64,000 nt of DNA from NCBI GenBank assembly GCA_041671505.1, contig JBAZBK010000010.1, forward strand, positions 46,838-110,837, in the 5' to 3' direction. Both the position numbers and the translations under genes were made by a program. This stretch comes from Thermoanaerobaculia bacterium (GTDB taxonomy: Bacteria > Acidobacteriota > Thermoanaerobaculia > Gp7-AA8). Below are positions 5,312 to 62,577 of this stretch, one piece after another (the first letter of the stretch is position 1; each line of letters begins with the position of its first letter). The notes beneath the pieces are model-generated. The model worked only from the letters and a program-made list of their open reading frames with translations, had not been told where the DNA came from and did no database searches.

Positions 5312-6919
5312 TTACTGCTGGATGTTGTCGACGTAGAAATCGACCGAGCCGATTTCGGCGCGCTGCCCGCCGGTGGTGCTCAACGCGGTGACCGTCAGCC
5401 GGTGCCTTCCGTCGGCGAGCTGCGTGGTGTCCATGTTGAAGCGCCAGCCGCTGCGCTGCGCGACGAGCCCGTACGACGGATACGCGGCCTGTACGTCAGT
5501 TCGGAGGAACCCGTACTCCGCGACTCCCGCGACCACGCCGTCGATCTGGATCTCGACGGTGGCAACCTGCTGGACAGCCCAGCCGAGGAACTGCACCGTC
5601 CCCTTGACGTAGTCGTAGTTGCCCGGGAAGTCGATGTATCCGACCGGGGCGAAGGTGTTGTTGCGCATACAGCTGAAGAACACCGGGATGCCGGCAGTGC
5701 CAGGGAGCTCGGCGAACGTCTGCTCCTGGTCGCCGACGCGAACCTTCAGAACGTGCGCGCCTTCGTTGACGCCCGCCTTGTAGAGGCTGCCGACGTCCAT
5801 CGCGAAGTAGTAGCCCGCACGCGGTGAATCGGGGTGCGTCGGGAAATACCTGGCCACATCGGGGCGCGGCATACCGTAGCAATCGACCAGGGCGCCGTAG
5901 GCGGTGACGAAGCGGCAGTCGTCGGTCGAGTACCAGCGCACGCCGTCGATCAGCAGCTCCGCATAGGCGACGCGCCCCGTGTCTTCACGAGTGCCGAGGT
6001 CGAGGGCCCAGCCGCGGACCGGCGTGATGCGGTTCTCGGGAGTGAATGGCGGTGAAACCACCGGGCCGGAGTTTTCGCAGTTTCCGAAGAGGACCGCGTC
6101 GCGCTGCGGCTGGTCGAGCGAGCCGAACGGCCGGAGGTTGTTCTCGCTGTTGAAGACCTGGATCGTGCGCCGTCCGATGACCCGGCTCAACCCGTTGCGG
6201 TCCGTCGCGCGGACGGTCATCGTGTGGATGCCGTCGATCAGGCGCGTCGAATCGACCTGCGACAGGAAGCCGCTGTAGAGCGATGACGGAAGGTCGGGGA
6301 AAGAGTTGTGGACGTCGGGACGAGGATCGCCGTAGTTCGCTGACTGCGTGCTCAGCCCATCGATCTGCACGTCGATGCGCGCGATGCCGTCAACGTCCGC
6401 AGCCCATCCCGAAACCGGGAACGAACCGTTGACATCGTAGACCGCGACCGAGTCGGGAGTCTCGAGGTAACCGAACGGAGGCTGGTTGATCGTATTGTCG
6501 ACGACGATCGTCCGCTGCCCCACCTCGTACACCTTGTTGTCCTCGGTGAAGATGCGAACCATCACGGTGTGCGTGCCGTTCGAGTAACGCGCCGCGGAGA
6601 ACCCCGTCTGGTAGCCAGGAAGGCGATTCTGCGTCCCGCTCCAATCGGGGTTCGACTCGACGACGTCGGTCCGCGGAATCGACAGGTTCGCCGAGTGGAC
6701 GTACAGCCCGTCGACGATCAGATCAATTCTCGAAATACCGACGGGATCGACGGCCCACCCCTGAACGAGAACCATCCCTGAGACAGTCTCGTTTGGAACC
6801 GGCTTCTCGAGGAAAGCGATGAATTCCGTCTGGGCCGACACCGAAGACACAAGGCTCATGACCAAGAGCCCGAGGACCAGCCCGCGGGTAACCATTCTCC
6901 ACATAACCCACACCTCCAA
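5312..6919 (-). CDS. Secreted protein with four ~125-150 aa tandem Ig-like repeats (unknown function)
   Basis: Signal peptide MWRMVTRGLVLGLLVMSLVSSVSAQ. Four repeats share the motif PFG.L..P......GWA.D..G..R(I/V)D..IDG....A.YG..RPDV...FP. Confidence 0.6.
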   Translation of the reverse strand: MEVWVMWRMVTRGLVLGLLVMSLVSSVSAQTEFIAFLEKPVPNETVSGMVLVQGWAVDPVGISRIDLIVDGLYVHSANLSIPRTDVVESNPDWSGTQNRLPGYQTGFSAARYSNGTHTVMVRIFTEDNKVYEVGQRTIVVDNTINQPPFGYLETPDSVAVYDVNGSFPVSGWAADVDGIARIDVQIDGLSTQSANYGDPRPDVHNSFPDLPSSLYSGFLSQVDSTRLIDGIHTMTVRATDRNGLSRVIGRRTIQVFNSENNLRPFGSLDQPQRDAVLFGNCENSGPVVSPPFTPENRITPVRGWALDLGTREDTGRVAYAELLIDGVRWYSTDDCRFVTAYGALVDCYGMPRPDVARYFPTHPDSPRAGYYFAMDVGSLYKAGVNEGAHVLKVRVGDQEQTFAELPGTAGIPVFFSCMRNNTFAPVGYIDFPGNYDYVKGTVQFLGWAVQQVATVEIQIDGVVAGVAEYGFLRTDVQAAYPSYGLVAQRSGWRFNMDTTQLADGRHRLTVTALSTTGGQRAEIGSVDFYVDNIQQ

Positions 6920-19383: not shown

Positions 19384-19545
19384 CTCATTCCGATCCCGCG
19401 AAGCGGGACGCAGCCGCGAGGAGGAATCTGCTGACAGATCACCTGACCGATTCCGCTCCGAAGCTCTACCCTCCGAGCGGAACCCGCCAGATGTGCTTTT
19501 GCAGATTCCTCGCTCTCCCGCTTCGCGGGATCGCTTCGGAATGAC
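19384..19545. mobile_element. MITE-like palindromic element, copy M1 (GTCATYCCGA-type termini)
   Basis: Termini are cattccgatcccgcgaagcggga ... tcccgcttcgcgggatcgcttcggaatgac (about 30-bp imperfect TIR). Internal motifs gaatctgct, ctgaccgattcc and gcagattcctcgc are shared with the copies at 33000, 40981 and 49055. Lies between convergent rodA and ihf. Confidence 0.5.
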
Positions 19546-19611
19546 ATCTGCCCACAACGCCAACGGGCGCACCGAAGTGCGCCCGTCGTCGATCGCGTTT
19601 GATGAGGTGGA

Positions 19612-20341: not shown

Positions 20342-20373
20342 CGTCGCGCCAGACATCGCAGCCAGCGCGCGCA

Positions 20374-20643
20374 TGTAGCCAGGGCGTCCCGCCCTGGCCC
20401 CCTGATCCCACAAGCGTCGAATCACCACGCTACGGGGGCAAAGGCCGGAGGCCTTTGCTACAGGGCTGACGCGGTGCTCGATGCCGAAGCTCGAGTTTGC
20501 CTCATGTAGCCAGGGCGTCCCGCCCTGGCCCCCGTTCCCGGGCGAGGCTGGATCACCTCGCAACGGGGGCAAAGGCCGGAGGCCTTTGCTACAGGGACCG
20601 CATCATCCCGCCACGCGTGCAAAGGCCGGAGGCCTTTGCTACA
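20374..20643. repeat. REP/BIME-like cluster: five GTAGC-headed GC-rich hairpins in alternating orientation
   Basis: tgtagccagggcgtcccgccctggcc occurs at 20374-20399 and 20505-20530 (a 30-bp exact repeat). The reverse-orientation unit gcaaaggccggaggcctttgctaca occurs at 20438-20462, 20569-20593 and 20619-20643. Lies between convergent hsp15-like and pheS. Confidence 0.6.
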
Positions 20644-20654
20644 AGGCCGACCGC

Positions 20655-21686
20655 TCAGAACTGGCGTAATACGCGCAGGTCGTTCTCGAAGAGCGTCCGG
20701 ATGTTAGGCATCCCGAACTTGATCATCGCCACGCGGTCGATGCCGAGCCCGAACGCGAAGCCGCTCCATTCGTTCGGATCGATGTCGCAGTTCCGGAGCA
20801 CCTGTGGGTGGATCATCCCGCAGCCGAGAATCTCCATCCATCCCGTCTTCGAGCAGGTGCCGCAGCCCGCGCCGCGACAGAAGGGACACGAGATGTCGAC
20901 CTCCGCCGAAGGCTCGGTGAAAGGAAAGTAACTCGGCCGGAACCTGATCTCCGTATCGGGGCTGAAGACGCGCCGCATGAAGTGCTCGAGCGTCCCGCGG
21001 AGATGTCCGAAGTGGACGCCTCGGTCGACGAAGAAGCCTTCCACCTGGTGGAACATCGGCGAGCGCCGGAGCGTGATCTCGTCGCGCCGGTAGACGCGGC
21101 CGGCGGAGAGAACCTTGAAGGGAGGCTGTCCCTTTTCCATCGTCCTGATCTGGACGTTCGACGTGTGCGTCCGAAGCAGCAGCTCCGGCCCGAGGTAGAA
21201 GGTGTCCTGCGTGTCGCGGGCGGGATGGTCGGGGGTGAAGTTCAGCCCCTCGAAGTTGTACCAGTCGGTCTCGATCTCCGGTCCCGGATCGATCGAATAG
21301 GCCATCTCGCGGAAGATCTGCTCGATCTCGCGGCGGACGAGCGTGATCGGGTGAAGCGAGCCGAACGCCGGCTTCCTCCCGGGGAGCGTGACGTCGATCG
21401 ACGAGCGCGCCTGCTTGCGCGCAGCCTCTTCGACCGCCGACGCTTCGAGCTTCTCGCGAAGGCGTGACTCGAGCGAGTCGCGAAGGAGATTGAGCTGCTC
21501 GCCGACTTCCTTCTTCCTCTCGGCGGGGACCGACTTGAGCTCCGCGAAGAGCGCGGGGACGACGCCCCCCTTGCGGCCGAAGAAGCGCACGCGAAGAGCT
21601 TCGAGGTCGGCGTGGGACGTCGACGCGGCGAGCGCCTCGTCGAACTCGCGTTCGGTGGTGCGGATCGAGTCGAGCATGTCGGTCAA
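20655..21686 (-). CDS. pheS: Phenylalanine--tRNA ligase alpha subunit
   Basis: Class II aaRS motifs and the conserved C-terminus ...FGLGIDRVAMIKFGMPNIRTLFENDLRVLRQF. Confidence 0.9.
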   Translation of the reverse strand: MTDMLDSIRTTEREFDEALAASTSHADLEALRVRFFGRKGGVVPALFAELKSVPAERKKEVGEQLNLLRDSLESRLREKLEASAVEEAARKQARSSIDVTLPGRKPAFGSLHPITLVRREIEQIFREMAYSIDPGPEIETDWYNFEGLNFTPDHPARDTQDTFYLGPELLLRTHTSNVQIRTMEKGQPPFKVLSAGRVYRRDEITLRRSPMFHQVEGFFVDRGVHFGHLRGTLEHFMRRVFSPDTEIRFRPSYFPFTEPSAEVDISCPFCRGAGCGTCSKTGWMEILGCGMIHPQVLRNCDIDPNEWSGFAFGLGIDRVAMIKFGMPNIRTLFENDLRVLRQF

Positions 21687-25309: not shown

Positions 25310-25386
<77 letters not shown>

Positions 25387-25407: not shown

Positions 25408-25484
25408 TGGTAGGCGCTATCGGACTCGAACCGATGACCTCTACCGTGTGAAGGTAGCGCTCTAACCAGCTGAGCTAAGCGCCT
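25408..25484 (-). tRNA. tRNA-Val (anticodon CAC)
   Basis: Near-identical scaffold to the adjacent tRNA. Acceptor stem AGGCGCT/AGCGCCT, anticodon loop TTCACAC, encoded CCA. Confidence 0.85.
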
Positions 25485-31514: not shown

Positions 31515-31632
31515 CCTGAAGAACCTGAAGTTAGAACGTAGAACGGTGAATTGAGAACCCAGAAAGGGGGACCGGGCGCCTCCTTCTTTCTGGGTTCTCA
31601 ATTCAACATTCTGCGTTCTAACTTCGGCCTTT
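31515..31632. repeat. Foldback hairpin, subtype E copy 1 (xxxxGAA heptads)
   Basis: cctgaagttagaacgtagaacggtgaattgagaacccagaaagg ... ccttctttctgggttctcaattcaacattctgcgttctaacttcgg. Copies also at 41018-41122 and 62415-62513. Confidence 0.55.
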
Positions 31633-31720
31633 GACCAGACGCTGTCGTCGCCACGCCCGTACCCTCAACAGTGGCCGAACCGGCCCGATTGGTCTAAACT
31701 GCATCAAAGATTGCACTTGG

Positions 31721-32999: not shown

Positions 33000-33148
33000 G
33001 TCATCCCGAGCCCGCGAAGCGGGAGAGGGATCTGCTAACGACCAAGCTGACCGATTCCTCAACCACGAGTCGTGGCATGTGGCACGATCCATCGCCGCGG
33101 AGGCCGCCATTCACCTGTCGGCAGATTCCTCGCTGCGCTCGGAATGAC
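33000..33148. mobile_element. MITE-like palindromic element, copy M2
   Basis: gtcatcccgagcccgcgaagcgggagagggatctgc...gcagattcctcgctgcgctcggaatgac, between the convergent FHA gene and the spoIID-like gene. Confidence 0.5.
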
Positions 33149-38336: not shown

Positions 38337-38590
38337 GCGGGCGGGGCAGGAAATGTGGAATCCGGAATGCGGTCCGCGGAACGAAAACCGAAATGTAGAA
38401 TGTCGAATGTTGAATGGAGAATGTAGAAAGGGGATTCGAAGACTGGGACCGGAGATTGGGAACGCACGCCGATAGCCGTGGACGCTGACTATTTCAACCG
38501 CGCGAGCGCTTCTCCATTCGACATTCTTCATTCGACATTCTTCATTTCGGTTTTCGTTCGCACTCTGCATCCCGCATTCCGCACGCCGCC
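38337..38590. repeat. 254-bp foldback element with xxGAATG heptad arms (subtype C)
   Basis: Left arm ggcggggcaggaaatgtggaatccggaatgcggtccgcggaacgaaaaccgaaatgtagaatgtcgaatgttgaatggagaatgtagaaagggg. The right arm is its imperfect reverse complement (...cttctccattcgacattcttcattcgacattcttcatttcggttttcgttcgcactctgcatcccgcattccgcacgccgcc). It fills almost the whole 336-bp divergent intergenic region. Confidence 0.55.
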
Positions 38591-38634: not shown

Positions 38635-40971
38635 ATGTCACAGCACCTCATCAACTACCTGAGCCTCAAGCCCGAGCAGTCGCCGTTCCTGCTCGCCTCG
38701 GATTTGCCGCGACTCCTGCCGGCGATCTTCACCCGCCCGGAGTGGCTCCTCCCGCGCCCCTACAAGATCTTCTTCATCGACGAGGCGGCGCCCCCAGGCT
38801 TCGGCTTCCCCGTGCTCCACTCCGAAGTGCTGCGCGACCTCGACACGAAGCTCGACCGCTGGCTCGCCGACGAGGTGAAGTGGCAGCTCAAGATGGAAGA
38901 CGCGCGCGAGCGCGCGCGCCAGGCGTTCGGCCAGTACGTCTCGATGGTGGTCAAGATCGCCGAGAACGCGATGCTGTCGAACCTGCTCGCCGACTACCAT
39001 GCGGTCTTCTGGCTCTCCCACTCGCTCGACCTCTCGCGCCACTTCATCAACCTGCCGAAGAGGATCAGCCTCGTCGACACGCAGGCGGCGAAGACCCAGG
39101 CCGACGCGATCAAGTACCGGATCTACTCGAAGTGGGCCGCCGAGATGCGCGAGCAGATGACGCGGCTCGCCGCGCGGCTCGCGCCGACCCTTGACGGCGA
39201 GGAGGAGCGCGGGCTGAAGTTCTTCCGCGTGATCCAGGACAACGTCCTCATTCTCACCGAAGAGTTCATCAGCCCCGACCTCCGGGAGCTGCGTCCCTTC
39301 TTCAACGGATATCTCCATCGCGACTTCTTCGCCTTCCGCGAGATGTTCGAGCGGCTGCAGGGACAGGCGGCGGAGCTCGCAAAGAAGGACGTCACCTTCC
39401 GCGGCCTCGTCGGCCTCTTCGGCGTGAGCCCCGACCAGGGAATCCCCGTCGCGCTGATGCTCGACCAGAAGTTCCAGGACGTCCTCTTCGGACTTCCGGC
39501 AGTCGAGCTGCGGGTCTCGCGCGAGGAACGCGAGCAGCTCCGCTCGCTCTCCCGCCGCCTGCAGGAGTACTCCGTCCTCAACGCGCTGCGGCGCGGCATC
39601 ACCTGGATGGCACAGCTGCCTAACGGCGACACCGTCGCCCTCGACCGGCGCACCGGCGTCGTCTATTCGCGCGCCACCCGCCCCATCGACTTCGGCCGCC
39701 CGGGCGTCGTCGACCCGATGGTCTACCGCTTCGGCCTGATGTACGACATCAGCGCCTTCTCGCAGACCCTCGGTGACGTCGCCCGCACCGGACGCAAGGG
39801 CGAGTTCACCGCCTACCGGCAGATGCTCCTCTTCCAGAAGAAGCTCGCGACGATCACCGACCGCCACGTCCTTCAGTTCGAGAAGTTCCTCGGCGACGGC
39901 GCGTTCTACACGACGCGCCGCGCGCTTCGCCTCGTCCTGGCGTCGATCGAGATCCAGCGCTTCTACTCCGAGATGCGCCGCAAGGGCTTCGCCTTCAACA
40001 AGGGACTCAGGATCGCGCTCAACTACGGCTACTACCGCCTCCTGCCGCTCAAGGGGACGCCCGACTCGCCCGAGCACGTCATCGAGTTCTACGGCCCCGG
40101 CGTCGTCGAGCTCTCGCGCCTGACGACCGGCAAGGCGACGAAGGAAGTCGAGGAGATCCAGACCTTCCTCGTCGCGCACGGCTACGACACGAACGAAGTC
40201 TCGCGCTTCTTCGCGCCACTCGCGTCGGGCGCCGACATGGTCGACAAGGAAATGCACCAGCGCGAGTTCTTCGCCTACGTCAACCAGAACGGGCACCTCG
40301 TGAACGAAGGGCTCGTCTCGTCGATGAGCCTCGTGAGCGAGCTCTCGGGCGAGCTCGCCGCAGAGGGCCACCAGCTCTATCGCATCCAGGCTGCCTGGAG
40401 CAGCTACATCGGCTTCAGCGCCCCGATCGACGGCGTCGACTTCATCGGCGTGAAGCTGATCGGTCGCGTGCAGCTCAAGGGGCTCGGCAAGATCGAGGTG
40501 GCGGAGTTCGTCCCCTTCAATCGCGCCGACGTGACCGAGACGCGCACCGACGACGGCGAAACGCTCTTCAGCCTGCTCCGGCAGGAGTTCCACCAGTCGA
40601 CGCTGACGCGCCCCGACGACGAGTTGCTCGCCCGCTCGACCGGCGAGAGCCGGAAGCCGGTGCAGCAGATCCTCGTCTGTTTCTTCCGCGACCCCGCCAA
40701 CTCTGCTCCCGCGGTCTACCTCGGCGAGTGGGACCCGGCGATGGACTCGCTCCGCAACGCCGTGCGCCTCGCCGACGGCGACCTCGAGTCGCGCCTCGGG
40801 ATCGTGCTCCCCGTCACCGCCGAGGCGCTCGGACGGGAGCGCGAGAACGTCCTCAGCGTTTACCTCGACGAGGCGCGCGACTCCTATCTCCCGTCGATTC
40901 CGATGGACAGCGTCCGCACCCTCCCCGAGCTCCGCCTCTTCCTCGTGGGACTGTCCGTCGAAGCGCTGTAG
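38635..40971 (+). CDS. Large hypothetical protein with a divergent class III nucleotidyl cyclase (CHD)-like palm domain
   Basis: Central region ...VYRFGLMYDISAFSQTL...FLGDGAFYTTRRALRLVLASIEIQR...GLRIALNYGYYRLLPLK...EFYGPGVVELSRLTTG... parallels the cyclase motifs F-x-D-I-x-GFT / K-x-x-GD-x-x-M / R-I-G-I-H-x-G / GDTVN-x-A-SR, with both candidate metal Asp residues present. The flanking about 350-aa N- and 250-aa C-regions are unrecognised. Confidence 0.5.
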   Translation: MSQHLINYLSLKPEQSPFLLASDLPRLLPAIFTRPEWLLPRPYKIFFIDEAAPPGFGFPVLHSEVLRDLDTKLDRWLADEVKWQLKMEDARERARQAFGQYVSMVVKIAENAMLSNLLADYHAVFWLSHSLDLSRHFINLPKRISLVDTQAAKTQADAIKYRIYSKWAAEMREQMTRLAARLAPTLDGEEERGLKFFRVIQDNVLILTEEFISPDLRELRPFFNGYLHRDFFAFREMFERLQGQAAELAKKDVTFRGLVGLFGVSPDQGIPVALMLDQKFQDVLFGLPAVELRVSREEREQLRSLSRRLQEYSVLNALRRGITWMAQLPNGDTVALDRRTGVVYSRATRPIDFGRPGVVDPMVYRFGLMYDISAFSQTLGDVARTGRKGEFTAYRQMLLFQKKLATITDRHVLQFEKFLGDGAFYTTRRALRLVLASIEIQRFYSEMRRKGFAFNKGLRIALNYGYYRLLPLKGTPDSPEHVIEFYGPGVVELSRLTTGKATKEVEEIQTFLVAHGYDTNEVSRFFAPLASGADMVDKEMHQREFFAYVNQNGHLVNEGLVSSMSLVSELSGELAAEGHQLYRIQAAWSSYIGFSAPIDGVDFIGVKLIGRVQLKGLGKIEVAEFVPFNRADVTETRTDDGETLFSLLRQEFHQSTLTRPDDELLARSTGESRKPVQQILVCFFRDPANSAPAVYLGEWDPAMDSLRNAVRLADGDLESRLGIVLPVTAEALGRERENVLSVYLDEARDSYLPSIPMDSVRTLPELRLFLVGLSVEAL

Positions 40972-40980
40972 CAGCAGCGC

Positions 40981-41170
40981 CATCCCGATCCCGCGAAGCG
41001 GGAGAGGGATCTGCAGCTAATTCAAAGGCTGAAGTTAGAACGTAGAACGATGAATGTTGAACCCAGAAAGGCGGGTACCCGTTTCTGGGTTCAAAATTCA
41101 ACGTTCTACGTTCTAACTTCGGCCTCTTCTCCTCCCGCGTACACCTGTCGGCAATGCCGCCGCCTCTGCG
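40981..41170. mobile_element. Truncated MITE copy (M3) with a subtype-E foldback (41018-41122) inserted inside it
   Basis: catcccgatcccgcgaagcgggagagggatctgc matches the left end of M2 at 33/34 positions. After the inserted hairpin, M2-like sequence resumes (cacctgtcggca...). Confidence 0.5.
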
Positions 41171-41226
41171 GCCGCCCCGCACGGCCCATCTTGACACCGC
41201 CCTCCGGAACCGCACTAATTCGCCCC

Positions 41227-42117
41227 ATGAATCACCCCTCGCTCGCAACGACGTCGCTCCCGCTTCCTCTCCATCGCCGCGGCAAAGTGCGCGACGTCTA
41301 CACGCTCGACGATGCGCTCCTGCTCGTCGCGACCGACCGGATCTCGGCCTTCGACGTCGTCCTCTCTCCCGGCGTCACCGGCAAGGGCATCGTCCTCACG
41401 CAGCTCTCGAACTTCTGGTTCCGGAAGTTCGGCTTCGTGAAGAACCACCTGATCGAAACCGACCTCGACCGCTTCCCCGAAGCGCTGCGCGCGCACGGCG
41501 AGCTCCGGGGCCGCGCGGTGATCGCGAGGAAGTGCGAGGTCGTGCCGGTCGAGTGCGTCGCGCGCGGCTACCTCGCCGGATCGGGATGGAAGGAGTACCA
41601 GCAGAACGGCGAGGTCTGCGGCGTCGCGCTCCCCGCGGGGCTCCGCCAGGCGTCGAAGCTCCCCGAGCCGATCTTCACGCCGGCCACGAAGGCGGACGAA
41701 GGGCACGACGAGAACATCCCGTTCGCGCGGATGAGCGATATCGTCGGCGCGGAGCTCGCCGGAAAACTGCGAGACCTGACCCTCACGATCTACACCGAGG
41801 CCGCGGCGTATGCGCGGGAGCGCGGCGTCATCATCGCCGACACCAAGTTCGAGTTCGGAATCGCCGACGGCGAGATCGTGTGGATCGACGAGGCGCTCAC
41901 CCCCGACTCCTCGCGTTTCTGGCCCGAGGCGGAGTATCGCGAGGGGACGAATCCGCCGTCGTTCGACAAACAGTTCGTCCGCGACTGGCTCGAGTCGACC
42001 GGGTGGGACAAGACTCCCCCCGCGCCCGAGCTCCCCGCCGACGTCGTCGAGCGTACCCTCGGAAAGTACCGTGAGGCTTACACGATGCTGACCGGCGCGG
42101 ATCTAGCGCTCGGTTAG
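41227..42117 (+). CDS. purC: Phosphoribosylaminoimidazole-succinocarboxamide synthase (SAICAR synthetase)
   Basis: ...[29 protein letters not shown]... Start at ATG 41227. The upstream part of the ORF overlaps repeats. Confidence 0.9.
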
Positions 42118-42150: not shown

Positions 42151-42486
42151 GTAGCCCCCGACTTCGGTCGGGGGTGGATGGCGACGCGCCAACGACGCGC
42201 CGCGTAGCGCCGCCGGAAATCATGATTCGTCCCTCGCGCACGAGGCGAGCGTCAGCTCGCATAGGCCGCGCCAGCGGCCGAGAGATGCGTAGCCCGGCCC
42301 GTCAGGGCCGGGTTGAGGCGAGAGGAGTTTGCGCGAGCCGCGTAAGCGGCGACAGAACGGCGCGGCGTGTCTTCACACGCGATGCGCATCTGTCGCCGCT
42401 CACGCGGCTCGATGACGCGCTCGCCGTGCGAATCCGGACCCTTACGGGTCCGGCTACCCATCTCTAAGGCGGACCCTGACGGGTCC
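42151..42486. repeat. REP-like hairpin cluster (GTAGCC-headed)
   Basis: gtagcccccgacttcggtcggggg (42151-42174), gtagcccggcccgtcagggccggg (42288-42311), and the reverse-orientation ccggacccttacgggtccggctac (42434-42457). Additional hairpins ggccgcgccagcggcc and ggaccctgacgggtcc. Confidence 0.5.
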
Positions 42487-49008: not shown

Positions 49009-49054
49009 AGGCGCTTCGAGCTGCGACGCCCGAGGGGAGTGTCGTCGCCACGAC

Positions 49055-49195
49055 TGACCTCCCGAAGCGAGGGAAGGAGGAGGGATCTCGCAGGCTGGCA
49101 TTCACGGGCCGCGAGACAGAGAATCTCCGACGAACCTCAACTGTACCAGCCTGCGAGATCCCTCCTCCCTCGCGCCGCTCGGTCGTCGGGATGAC
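49055..49195. mobile_element. MITE-like palindromic element, copy M4 (diverged)
   Basis: ctgacctcccgaagcgagggaaggaggagggatctcgcaggctgg ... ccagcctgcgagatccctcctccctcgcgccgctcggtcgtcgggatgac (about 35-bp arms, ends ...gggatgac). Confidence 0.4.
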
Positions 49196-49302
49196 AATCC
49201 GCACGCTCATGGACGATGGCGCGAGCCTCGCCGTCTCATGGAGTTTGTTCCCCAGTTGGCGCGGTGGCCGCTCAGGAGGAGGACTTCGGAATGACCGCTT
49301 CG

Positions 49303-57107: not shown

Positions 57108-57212
57108 GACTTTTCGAGGCCCCGCGATGCTGAGTTGCGGGGCCTTGGTGTATTCGGGCGATTTCGTGCGGCGGATGGAACTCGTTCCGCGAGATCTTCG
57201 CTGGATCGACGT

Positions 57213-57581
57213 CAGCGTTCGTCCGCGAAAACCGAAATGTCGAATGTCGAATGAGGAATGAAGAATGGAGAAACAAGGCCCGTCGCATTGACCCTTTCTT
57301 CATTCTTCATTCGACATTCGACATTCGACATTTCGAATTCTCGACCCCCTGCACCGACCTCGCCGATCGCCGAACGCACGCACGGCCCGCCTGAACAAAA
57401 CTCAGCGTTCGTCCGCGAAAACCGAAATGTCGAATGTCGAATGAGGAATGAAGAATGGAGAAACGAGGCCCGCCGCATTGCCCCTTTCTTCATTCTTCAT
57501 TCGACATTCGACATTCGACATTTCGAATTCTCGACCCCCTGCACCGACCTCGCCGATCGCCGAACGCACGCACGGCCCGCC
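57213..57581. repeat. Tandem 190-bp duplication, each unit containing a subtype C/D foldback hairpin (xxGAATG heptads)
   Basis: Unit 1 is 57213-57402 and unit 2 is 57403-~57581, near-identical. Each unit has cgaaaaccgaaatgtcgaatgtcgaatgaggaatgaagaatggagaaa ... tttcttcattcttcattcgacattcgacattcgacatttcgaattctcg. Hairpins at 57226-57343 and 57416-57533. Lies between convergent genes. Confidence 0.6.
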
Positions 57582-57645
57582 ATCAAAGAACAAAGGCCCC
57601 TTTCCGCTCACGCAGAAAGGGGCCGGGATTCAAGACTGACTTCGG

Positions 57646-61735: not shown

Positions 61736-62308
61736 AGCAACTGCCTTTCCTGCGAGACCGATCGAGCGGAGCGTCTCGTCGAAGTGCGCGCGGTCGAATG
61801 CGTCGCCGGCCGCTGTTGCGAGATCGTCGACGGTAACGTCTTCGCGCTCCGAAAGTATGAGCATGAGTGCAAGGTCCTCCGCGTGGACGACCGGAACGGG
61901 CGAACCTGCGAGGAGCGCTTCGACCGTGCGATTGAGCATTTTCGCGTAGAGCGCGTTCGTCGCCATGAGCACATGAACGCGCGGCGACCCGTCGCCACTG
62001 CCCCACCGCATCGGGACGAGGTCGAGCTCGCGCGCCGCCTCGACCTCGGCCGGGTCGACCGTGAAGCCGCGGTGGCTCGCCATCATCGGAATCTGCTGGG
62101 AGCGGTCGGGGGAGACCAGGGCGAGCACGTCGACCGCGCCTGACTCGACGCGGCGGCCGGTCCAGGCTCCGATCGCGATTTCACCGACGAACGCGTGCGC
62201 GACCTGTTGCCGCGCCAGGATGTCGTCGATCGCTCGCGCCGCCGCGAGCCTCGGATCCACGATGTCGAGAGTGAGCTGTCCCATGCCGCCGACGGTGGAG
62301 CGTAGCAT
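61730..62308 (-). CDS. Hypothetical protein
   Basis: 192 aa with no motif. Its stop overlaps the rnd start. Confidence 0.35.
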   Translation of the reverse strand: MLRSTVGGMGQLTLDIVDPRLAAARAIDDILARQQVAHAFVGEIAIGAWTGRRVESGAVDVLALVSPDRSQQIPMMASHRGFTVDPAEVEAARELDLVPMRWGSGDGSPRVHVLMATNALYAKMLNRTVEALLAGSPVPVVHAEDLALMLILSEREDVTVDDLATAAGDAFDRAHFDETLRSIGLAGKAVAR

Positions 62309-62414
62309 GGTGGGGTCACACCGAAAGATGAAAGTTTGCGGCGGGACCCCACTTCTTCATCTTCTTTTCGGTCTGACTCCAATGGCTTTCTGCTTCGAGT
62401 TAACGGAAGAGAAG

Positions 62415-62513
62415 CCGAAGTTAGAAGTTAGAACGTTGAATGTTGAATCCAGAAAGGCCTGAGCGGCTTCTTTTCTGGGTTCAAAACTCAACGTTCTAAC
62501 TTCTAACTTCAGG
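62415..62513. repeat. Foldback hairpin, subtype E copy 3
   Basis: ccgaagttagaagttagaacgttgaatgttgaatccagaaagg cctgagcggcttc ttttctgggttcaaaactcaacgttctaacttctaacttcagg. Confidence 0.55.
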
Positions 62514-62577
62514 TTTTCCTGCGTGAACTCACCGCCGTTGAGTCTGACCCAGCGGCGGAGGCGGGACGCCTCCGCCA

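Follow-up and report, generated by a model that had tools for sequence, protein, structure and literature searches.

We analyzed a 64,000-nt stretch of Thermoanaerobaculia DNA (the window) and found that the spacer upstream of purC is a pile of repeats. Our preferred reading, to which we assign a probability of roughly 0.6, is that they piled up in a spacer once only 5 nt long, an M-type element arriving first and the foldback E2 later in the window lineage, and that the foldbacks are non-autonomous mobile DNA. Decisive for the order of events is how the orthologous spacer compares among relatives. A bacterial repeat hot spot of this sort is nothing out of the ordinary, and it provides a worked example of a 5-nt bacterial spacer becoming a repeat pile apparently without harm to either neighboring gene, in which the nesting of repeats is datable with sister lineages.

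The purC spacer and its repeats

The window has a G+C content of 65.9%, and the closest relatives of its PurC and neighboring proteins come from metagenome-assembled genomes of Thermoanaerobaculia (Acidobacteriota). About 40 ORFs across it, annotated with Pfam, are housekeeping genes, including mreBC, PBP2/RodA, aminoacyl-tRNA synthetases and pyrBC/pyrR. A 255-nt spacer separates the gene for a conserved 778-aa hypothetical protein (38635-40971, forward strand, from the ORF list) from purC (SAICAR synthetase; 41227-42117, forward strand; PF01259, E = 1.4e-75). A Pfam search with the 778-aa protein returned no match, and homologues with 93%, 87% and 83% identity are found on Thermoanaerobaculia contigs.

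The stop codon of the 778-aa gene (40969-40971) forms the left edge of the colonized spacer. The right edge is a conserved block on the forward strand (41190-41226) that is probably the purC promoter, consisting of TTGACA (41191-41196), 17 nt, ACTAAT (41214-41219), 7 nt and ATG. This 37-nt block (CTTGACA...GGAACCGCACTAATTCGCCCC-ATG) was kept in every relative compared and is nearly identical in the contigs L001, L081, L082, L083, L084 and L086, in which the sequence 5' of the block is wholly different. It is almost invariant although the gene itself is only ~82% identical among relatives. Because position 2 of the -10 element is a C, a consensus promoter scanner made no call on the block, and we therefore infer the promoter role. 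The spacing within the block points to a purC mRNA with no leader or almost none.

Between the stop codon and the promoter lie 218 nt (40972-41189) of stacked repeats that are non-coding and form hairpins. Folding 40972-41190 as RNA predicted three separate hairpins, corresponding to an M-type unit (40973-41018), E2, and a third hairpin (~41145-41185).

The first of these is the terminal unit of an M-type element. In the reference copy, M2 (33000-33148, forward strand), two inverted REP-like units enclose an interior of ~77 nt; M1 (19385-19546, forward strand) and M4 (49022-49205, reverse strand) are likewise paired, inverted, GC-rich imperfect palindromes of ~35-45 nt, of the form GTCATYCCGA..CCCGCGAAGCGGGA..GAGGRATCTGC, and the interiors of the copies differ from one another. 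The unit at the purC site, an REP-like imperfect hairpin (CATCCCGATCCCGCGAAGCGGGAGAGGGATCTGC; 40981-41014, forward strand), aligned to 33002-33035 with 97.06% identity over 34 nt (33/34), confirming the match to the left end of M2 given in the preliminary description. Its 23-mer core, CCCGCGAAGCGGGAGAGGGATCT, occurs in the window only here and in M2 (0.00 expected in shuffles). The 14-mer core CCCGCGAAGCGGGA is present at four places in the 64 kb (both ends of M1, M2 and the purC-site copy) and in five copies in the relatives' loci examined, and its exact form is missing from M4. M4 and the L081 element at the purC site belong to one subfamily (70% over 150 nt). M1, M2, M4 and the L081 element are doublets, and 40981-41014 and L084 8511-8546 are single units. 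Like REPINs and REPs, the M-type elements thus comprise both pairs of inverted REP palindromes with a short spacer and solo units. Terminal inverted repeats of the kind that define MITEs are present in M1, M2 and M4, as inverted terminal units, and in the E elements, which are inverted throughout. The M repeats are REPIN/BIME-like in architecture rather than classical MITEs.

The second hairpin, E2, extends by homology with the related copies E1, E3 and one in L084 from ~41022 to ~41132 (~111 nt), with a right boundary that is uncertain within 41126-41140. The complete foldback described earlier at 41018-41122 is therefore real, with coordinates a few bases off. Its 44-nt arms (41026-41069 and 41082-41125) are 93% complementary and flank a 12-nt loop (41070-41081), each arm being built of five tandem GAAYNNN heptamers. 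E2 is a near-perfect palindrome, and as single-stranded DNA the region has a predicted folding energy of -46.8 kcal/mol (z = -12.1). The purine-rich run at 41126-41140 may be a remnant of the M right unit, although E1 and E3 have similar purine-rich ends.

Foldbacks also break assemblies and create spurious ORFs. The mechanically called 355-aa ORF at 41050-42117 starts inside E2 and reads through its right arm in frame into purC; homologues of purC start at the position equivalent to 41227, and gene callers could mis-start the gene at E2.

Order of events and junctions at the purC site

Two relatives, at ~83% identity, have an empty spacer at this site. In L001 (PurC 85% identical at the amino acid level), the stop codon is followed by 5 nt and TTGACA, and L086 (778-aa protein 83% identical) likewise has an empty 5-nt spacer. 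At 4060-5604 of L086, an ENA contig, the sequence switches abruptly from high-GC purC to low-GC sequence in mid-gene, which is probably a chimeric assembly. The spacer of L082 measures ~100 nt and includes a one-armed heptamer array (PurC 85% identical by global alignment and 87% over 94% of the query; purC ~83% identical), and that of L083 holds other hairpins. L084 and L085, which stem from separate samples and match at every base, carry an M unit 9 nt past the stop codon, as in the window, with 37/38 nt identical (L084 8510-8547); ~430 nt of other repeats follow, and the purC spacer contains no E foldback. L081 (~93% identical in purC) has a whole M element of the M4 subfamily, with both units, and no foldback at the purC site. 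E2 was absent from all relatives examined and, within this comparison, is confined to the window lineage.

The purC genes of the window, L081 and L084 are mutually ~93% identical in nucleotide sequence, and those of the other relatives are ~80-87% identical to these and to one another. Because L084 and L085 carry the orthologous unit at an identical offset, the M unit predates the split of the three ~93% sisters, and the parsimonious interpretation is that E2 was gained later in the window lineage. Gain of E2 in this lineage is more parsimonious than its loss in both L081 and L084; parsimony favors this polarity without proving it, since all three lineages lie equally far apart. The high complementarity of the E2 arms fits a young copy.

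We envisage that an M-type element, an inverted doublet of REP-like units, colonized the spacer in the ancestor of the window and its ~93% sisters, and that later, in the window lineage only, an E copy would have inserted 7 nt inside the M left unit. Along with E2 or after it, the M right unit and most of the M interior would have disappeared, and a fragment of a third repeat family now abuts the M remnant. Because neither the flanking gene nor the flanking promoter is damaged, the spot appears to tolerate repeated insertions, each of which would widen the safe target for the next, presumably with little effect on purC expression. The data show how the pile is built, in which order its parts came and that foldbacks were gained at different times, whereas the mobilizing enzyme, the chemistry of insertion and neutrality for purC expression are inferred.

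The sequences next to E2 offer partial support for its arrival inside M-derived DNA. On the left, the M sub-terminal motif AGCTAAT (7 nt; 41015-41021, forward strand) lies between the M unit and E2, and TCTGCAGCTAAT resembles TCTCGCAGGCTAG in L081 and TCTCGCAGGCTGG in M4, a short and suggestive match. On the right is GTACACCTGTCGGCA (41139-41153, forward strand), in which GTACA continues the interior of M4 and L081 and of which the last 12 nt are CACCTGTCGGCA. This 12-mer is found exactly at 33112 and 41142 (41142-41153) and in M2 sits just inside the right terminus. In tests of the remaining M2 sequence against the 65 nt beyond the right end of the foldback, a shared substring of at least 12 nt arose in 0/5000 shuffles and in 16/4955 random segments of the window, giving p about 0.003 for the sharing of CACCTGTCGGCA. 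In both L081 and M4, the M interior reads ...TCTCGCAGGCT(A/G)GTACAG..., with GCAGGCT(A/G)GTACAG contiguous, whereas the window has GCAGCTAAT-E2-GTACAC; GCAG(G)CTA and GTACA therefore abut in those elements and flank E2 in the window. Allowing for boundary uncertainty, we estimate p at about 0.01-0.03 for this contiguity.

The preliminary description had taken E2 to be inserted into an M copy whose M2-like sequence resumes beyond it, and had proposed that the flanks be aligned without E2. We excised every plausible E2 interval and aligned the joined flanks to M1, M2, L081 and L084. No variant extended past the left unit, which rules out strict collinearity of the flanks with an M copy. The M right terminal hairpin was not found right of E2, and ~36 nt of M interior are absent from the window relative to L084. 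Where the M right terminus would be expected, 41153-41176 (forward strand) instead holds a hairpin, AATGCCGCCGCCTCTGCGGCCGCC, that matches L084 8893-8916 at 21/24 positions and is the solo terminus of a different ('N-type') repeat family; its L084 counterpart is the right end of an inverted-repeat element of ~240 nt (L084 8676-8916), and in the window it forms part of the third predicted hairpin. The resumption of M2-like sequence thus holds for the 12-mer at 41142-41153 and fails for what follows. As for the other proposed check, no target-site duplication flanking E2 was visible; together with the uncertain right boundary, this means that a clean insertion junction cannot be shown.

To the left of E2, the M-like flank therefore comprises one REP-like unit and 7 further nt; to the right, it comprises 5-15 nt. 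Because excision of E2 reconstitutes no known M copy, the case for nesting rests on these 34+7 and 5-15 nt. The data would also accommodate a solo REP-like unit, left by a decayed M element, and an independent foldback that came to lie side by side, so that the foldback never interrupted M. This account draws on the absent M right unit and non-collinear interior, on the fragment of another family that follows directly at 41153-41176, and on the general character of the spacer, in which several unrelated repeat families have collected in L082, L083 and L084. Against it stand the sub-terminal 12-mer of M2, which lies beyond E2 in the correct orientation (p about 0.003), the GTACA that continues the M4/L081 interior, and the sister lineage with a complete M element at the purC site, and we regard it as doubtful. 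Our conclusion is that E2 lies within what is left of an M element: either it did not arrive by clean cut-and-paste into an intact copy, or a deletion came later. The proposed insertion into an M copy stands in that E2 arrived later and inside M-derived DNA, and falls as regards an intact, collinear copy.

Anatomy, descent and mobility of the foldbacks

E2 belongs to a family with two further copies in the window, E1 (31518-31636) and E3 (62397-62530), relative to which it is inverted in orientation. A second subtype is found at 38354-38582, 57226-57338 and 57416-57528. In both subtypes, the arms are tandem GAAYNNN heptamers ending in AGAAA beside a GC-rich loop, and the foldbacks are AT-rich palindromes in a GC-rich genome. 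The pattern GAABNNNGAAYNNNGAAYNNNGAAYNNAGAAA matched ten arms in the window versus 0.00 expected. The E copies are ~78-80% identical to each other, yet each retains 85-93% arm complementarity, and compensatory double changes affect 4/42 stem pairs among five copies; the palindrome is therefore maintained, either by a copying mechanism or by selection. No direct repeats indicative of target-site duplication were found at the ends of E1, E2, E3, M1, M2 or M4, and the fuzzy element boundaries leave room for a 2-nt TA duplication at E and M copies. E ends seemed to keep a constant ~89 nt to start codons, an observation that we discarded since the start codons themselves are uncertain.

The copies differ in age and distribution. 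E1 is an ancient copy common to the window and L082, where it is orthologous and its arms have decayed to ~77% complementarity. E3, like E2 confined to the window lineage in these comparisons, is absent from the orthologous spacers of L207 (94% amino acid identity), L208 (92%) and L209-L211 (90%), in the last three of which the spacer measures only 61 nt. L084, a closer relative than L082, has an E copy of its own (5990-6099) upstream of the 778-aa gene. In the same position, the window (38354-38582) and the more distant L082 (7270-7460) have orthologous foldbacks of the GAATGTC subtype, with loops of 81-110 nt that both begin GGGATTCGRAG, and L086 (1478-1597) has no foldback. Judged from these sequences, the E family has made at least four gains at different times, and, as in MITEs, small non-coding dispersed copies occupy sites that are filled in some relatives and empty in others. 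The mobility of the foldbacks, past or present, that was first argued from nesting is thus supported on other grounds, namely their differing presence and absence among relatives.

We also weighed an origin on the spot, in which template switching would have produced an inverted duplicate of a tandem heptamer array. Plain arrays of the GAAYNNN type are common in high-GC contigs, and the purC spacer of L082 contains a one-armed array. However, E1, E2, E3 and the L084 copy are 78-80% identical along the whole arm, including the non-periodic parts GAAGTTAGAAC... and ...CCCAGAAA, and have similar ends, which identifies them as dispersed copies of common descent and makes local origin very improbable.

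A host function for the foldbacks, as a terminator or an insulator that separates the 778-aa gene from purC, or as a structured RNA or protein-binding array regulating purC, is unlikely, and we give the idea little credence. E2 does lie between stop codon and promoter, its predicted folds are very stable, the stem has been kept by compensatory changes, and E1 has been kept since the split from L082. Relatives, however, need no more than 5 nt before the same promoter block, and the L082 copy of E1 has decayed to ~77% complementarity. Within 40800-41400 there was no T-tract and no terminator or promoter call; E2 is AT-rich and followed by CGGCCTCTTCTCC, in place of the GC-rich stem and T-run of an intrinsic terminator, and conventional GC-rich terminator-like hairpins occur beside other foldbacks. 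Foldbacks also face 5' and 3' gene ends alike. Mismatches in the stems of 27 hairpins (G-T 21, A-C 34, other 75) carry no wobble signature. No Rfam family reached threshold: over E2, only sub-threshold miRNA-precursor models scored (27-49 bits versus thresholds of 53-168), look-alikes typical of any long hairpin.

That the arrangement is a chimeric assembly or mis-joined repeat is hardly credible: repeats do break metagenome assemblies, and the L081 contig starts inside an M unit, but the same families recur with consistent flanks in independent JGI, NCBI and ENA assemblies, including the matching L084 and L085.

Hairpins of a similar kind are present in numerous metagenome contigs from soil and sediment. 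Two-armed hairpins with heptamer arms were found in at least 22 metagenome contigs (GC 0.52-0.71) among at least 120 (L087-L206) that match the heptamer pattern, and these hairpins all lie outside coding regions according to a crude ORF call. We delimited them by arm-versus-arm alignment, whole-segment MFE being too noisy. Many of the other matching contigs contain plain tandem heptamer arrays, and direct arrays such as (GAATTGA)n, (GAACTGA)n, (GAATGCA)n and (GAACGCA)n occur in contigs of all GC contents. BLAST against plasmids and phages and pattern scans of viral contigs yielded no match to the foldbacks, nor did Rfam 15 or the literature searched; in particular, the literature search returned no account of heptamer foldbacks in Acidobacteria or Thermoanaerobaculia, and none of STRRs. 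Among bacterial palindromic repeats, the heptamer-armed family seems to be a variant that has not been described before. The gathering-threshold Rfam scan of the window returned only two tRNAs. Downstream of thrS are two adjacent tRNA genes (25313-25386 and 25411-25484, reverse strand) with 92% identity over 83 nt.

Putative mechanism and comparison with known repeats

Within the preferred reading, the foldbacks would behave as non-autonomous mobile DNA that inserts without target-site duplication. The missing duplication, near-complete palindromy, concerted arms and preference for hairpin-bearing spacers make a hairpin- or single-strand-dependent mechanism acting in trans (Y1/HUH-type or similar), in the manner of RAYTs on REPs and REPINs or of IS200/IS605-type Y1 enzymes (PMC3333891, PMC2817692), or recombination between copies, the likeliest route. 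The concerted change of the two arms would indicate either an intermediate in hairpin or single-stranded form or repair of one arm from the other. Pfam detected no transposase, RAYT or Y1 gene among the ~40 ORFs of the window, and no transposase was found in the called genes of the L082, L084 and L207-L211 loci; mobilization in trans is therefore an assumption. Nor did the window and the relatives' loci contain a related autonomous IS with matching termini, as would be expected of a MITE family. More tentatively still, the foldbacks may represent an undescribed bacterial class of non-autonomous mobile elements in Acidobacteriota-like high-GC genomes, which would home to spacers with hairpins or repeats and displace one another. 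Apparent examples of such displacement are the site before the 778-aa gene, at which one subtype is found in the window and L082 and an E-type foldback in L084, and a hairpin whose outer stem is common to the window and L207 and whose inner arms differ. The turnover of foldbacks and their concerted arms could give a handle on hairpin-dependent mobilization in an uncultivated phylum.

The M-type elements resemble REPs, REPINs and BIMEs in consisting of two inverted GC-rich imperfect palindromes of ~35 nt around a short interior, in being strictly intergenic and without target-site duplications, in occurring as doublets and solo units, and in clustering with other repeats. Many REPs have been described with GTAG-type heads, whereas M units start with GTCATYCCGA. 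REPINs (PMC3116915, PMC3337134) and the RAYT/TnpA-REP proteins (PMC2817692, PMC3333891) have been described previously; in contrast to the REP/RAYT system, the window and the relatives' loci contain no RAYT or Y1 gene. Because IS elements are known to target REPs (PMC1525189), an arrangement of repeat within repeat is a known phenomenon. The lodging of a second element in an M repeat is similar in kind, except that the intruder, E2, is a small non-coding palindrome and not an IS.

Bacterial MITEs such as Nezha, Chunjie and Correia elements (reviewed in PMC3184786) are comparable in size (~110-230 nt), in their non-coding inverted-repeat architecture and dispersal, and in the filled and empty sites between related genomes. 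The foldbacks differ from them in lacking a target-site duplication and, here, a recognizable parent IS, and in that E is almost all stem, unlike short terminal inverted repeats around a unique core. A link between Y1 enzymes and REPs has been reported (PMC3333891).

PATEs, derived from IS200/IS605 elements, are hairpin-dependent, leave no target-site duplication and move as single strands. Hairpin dependence, the missing duplication and single-strand movement would fit the anatomy of E; however, no conserved target tetra- or pentanucleotide could be made out next to E from 4-5 copies, and no TnpA gene was found. In eukaryotes, Foldback (FB) transposons have long inverted arms of short tandem repeats and can be nearly all palindrome; they are of kilobase scale and have target-site duplications. 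The resemblance to E is one of form only, given the different domain of life and the absence of such duplications from E. Cyanobacterial STRRs are intergenic, direct tandem arrays of heptanucleotides, which agree with the foldbacks in location and 7-nt period and differ in unit sequence and in being direct arrays, not hairpins with two complementary arms.

Several further observations concern repeats elsewhere in the window. At the site 5' of the 778-aa gene, foldbacks seem to replace one another. Between two convergent genes, a 190-nt unit comprising a foldback and a GC-rich tail of ~60 nt is tandemly duplicated with 98% identity (57212-57391 and 57402-57581), and each of these genes has a GC-rich terminator-like hairpin of its own (57119-57146 and 57604-57630). 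Hairpins lie directly before the ATG of the next gene at 62305-62385 (reverse strand) and at L207 1785-1868; they have a common outer stem, CAGACCG...CGGTCTGACCCC, and entirely different AT-rich inner arms, and the L207 hairpin has a perfect 25-bp stem with AAGTATY units of 7-nt periodicity. Downstream of purC, an inverted-repeat element of ~243 nt with GGACCCGTAAGGGTCCGG hairpins (42244-42486) is 78% identical to L084 383-630, a different locus (the M2 site). At 20360-20660, a 53-nt REP-like unit (GCAAAGGCCGGAGGCCTTTGC) occurs three times, with CATGTAGCCAGGGCGTCCCGCCCTGGCC units interspersed, and a GCAACGGCCGGAGGCCGTTGC unit resembling these is present at the E3 site of relatives (L207 1755-1780 and L208 4955-4975). 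The window lineage carries many distinct families of hairpin repeats.
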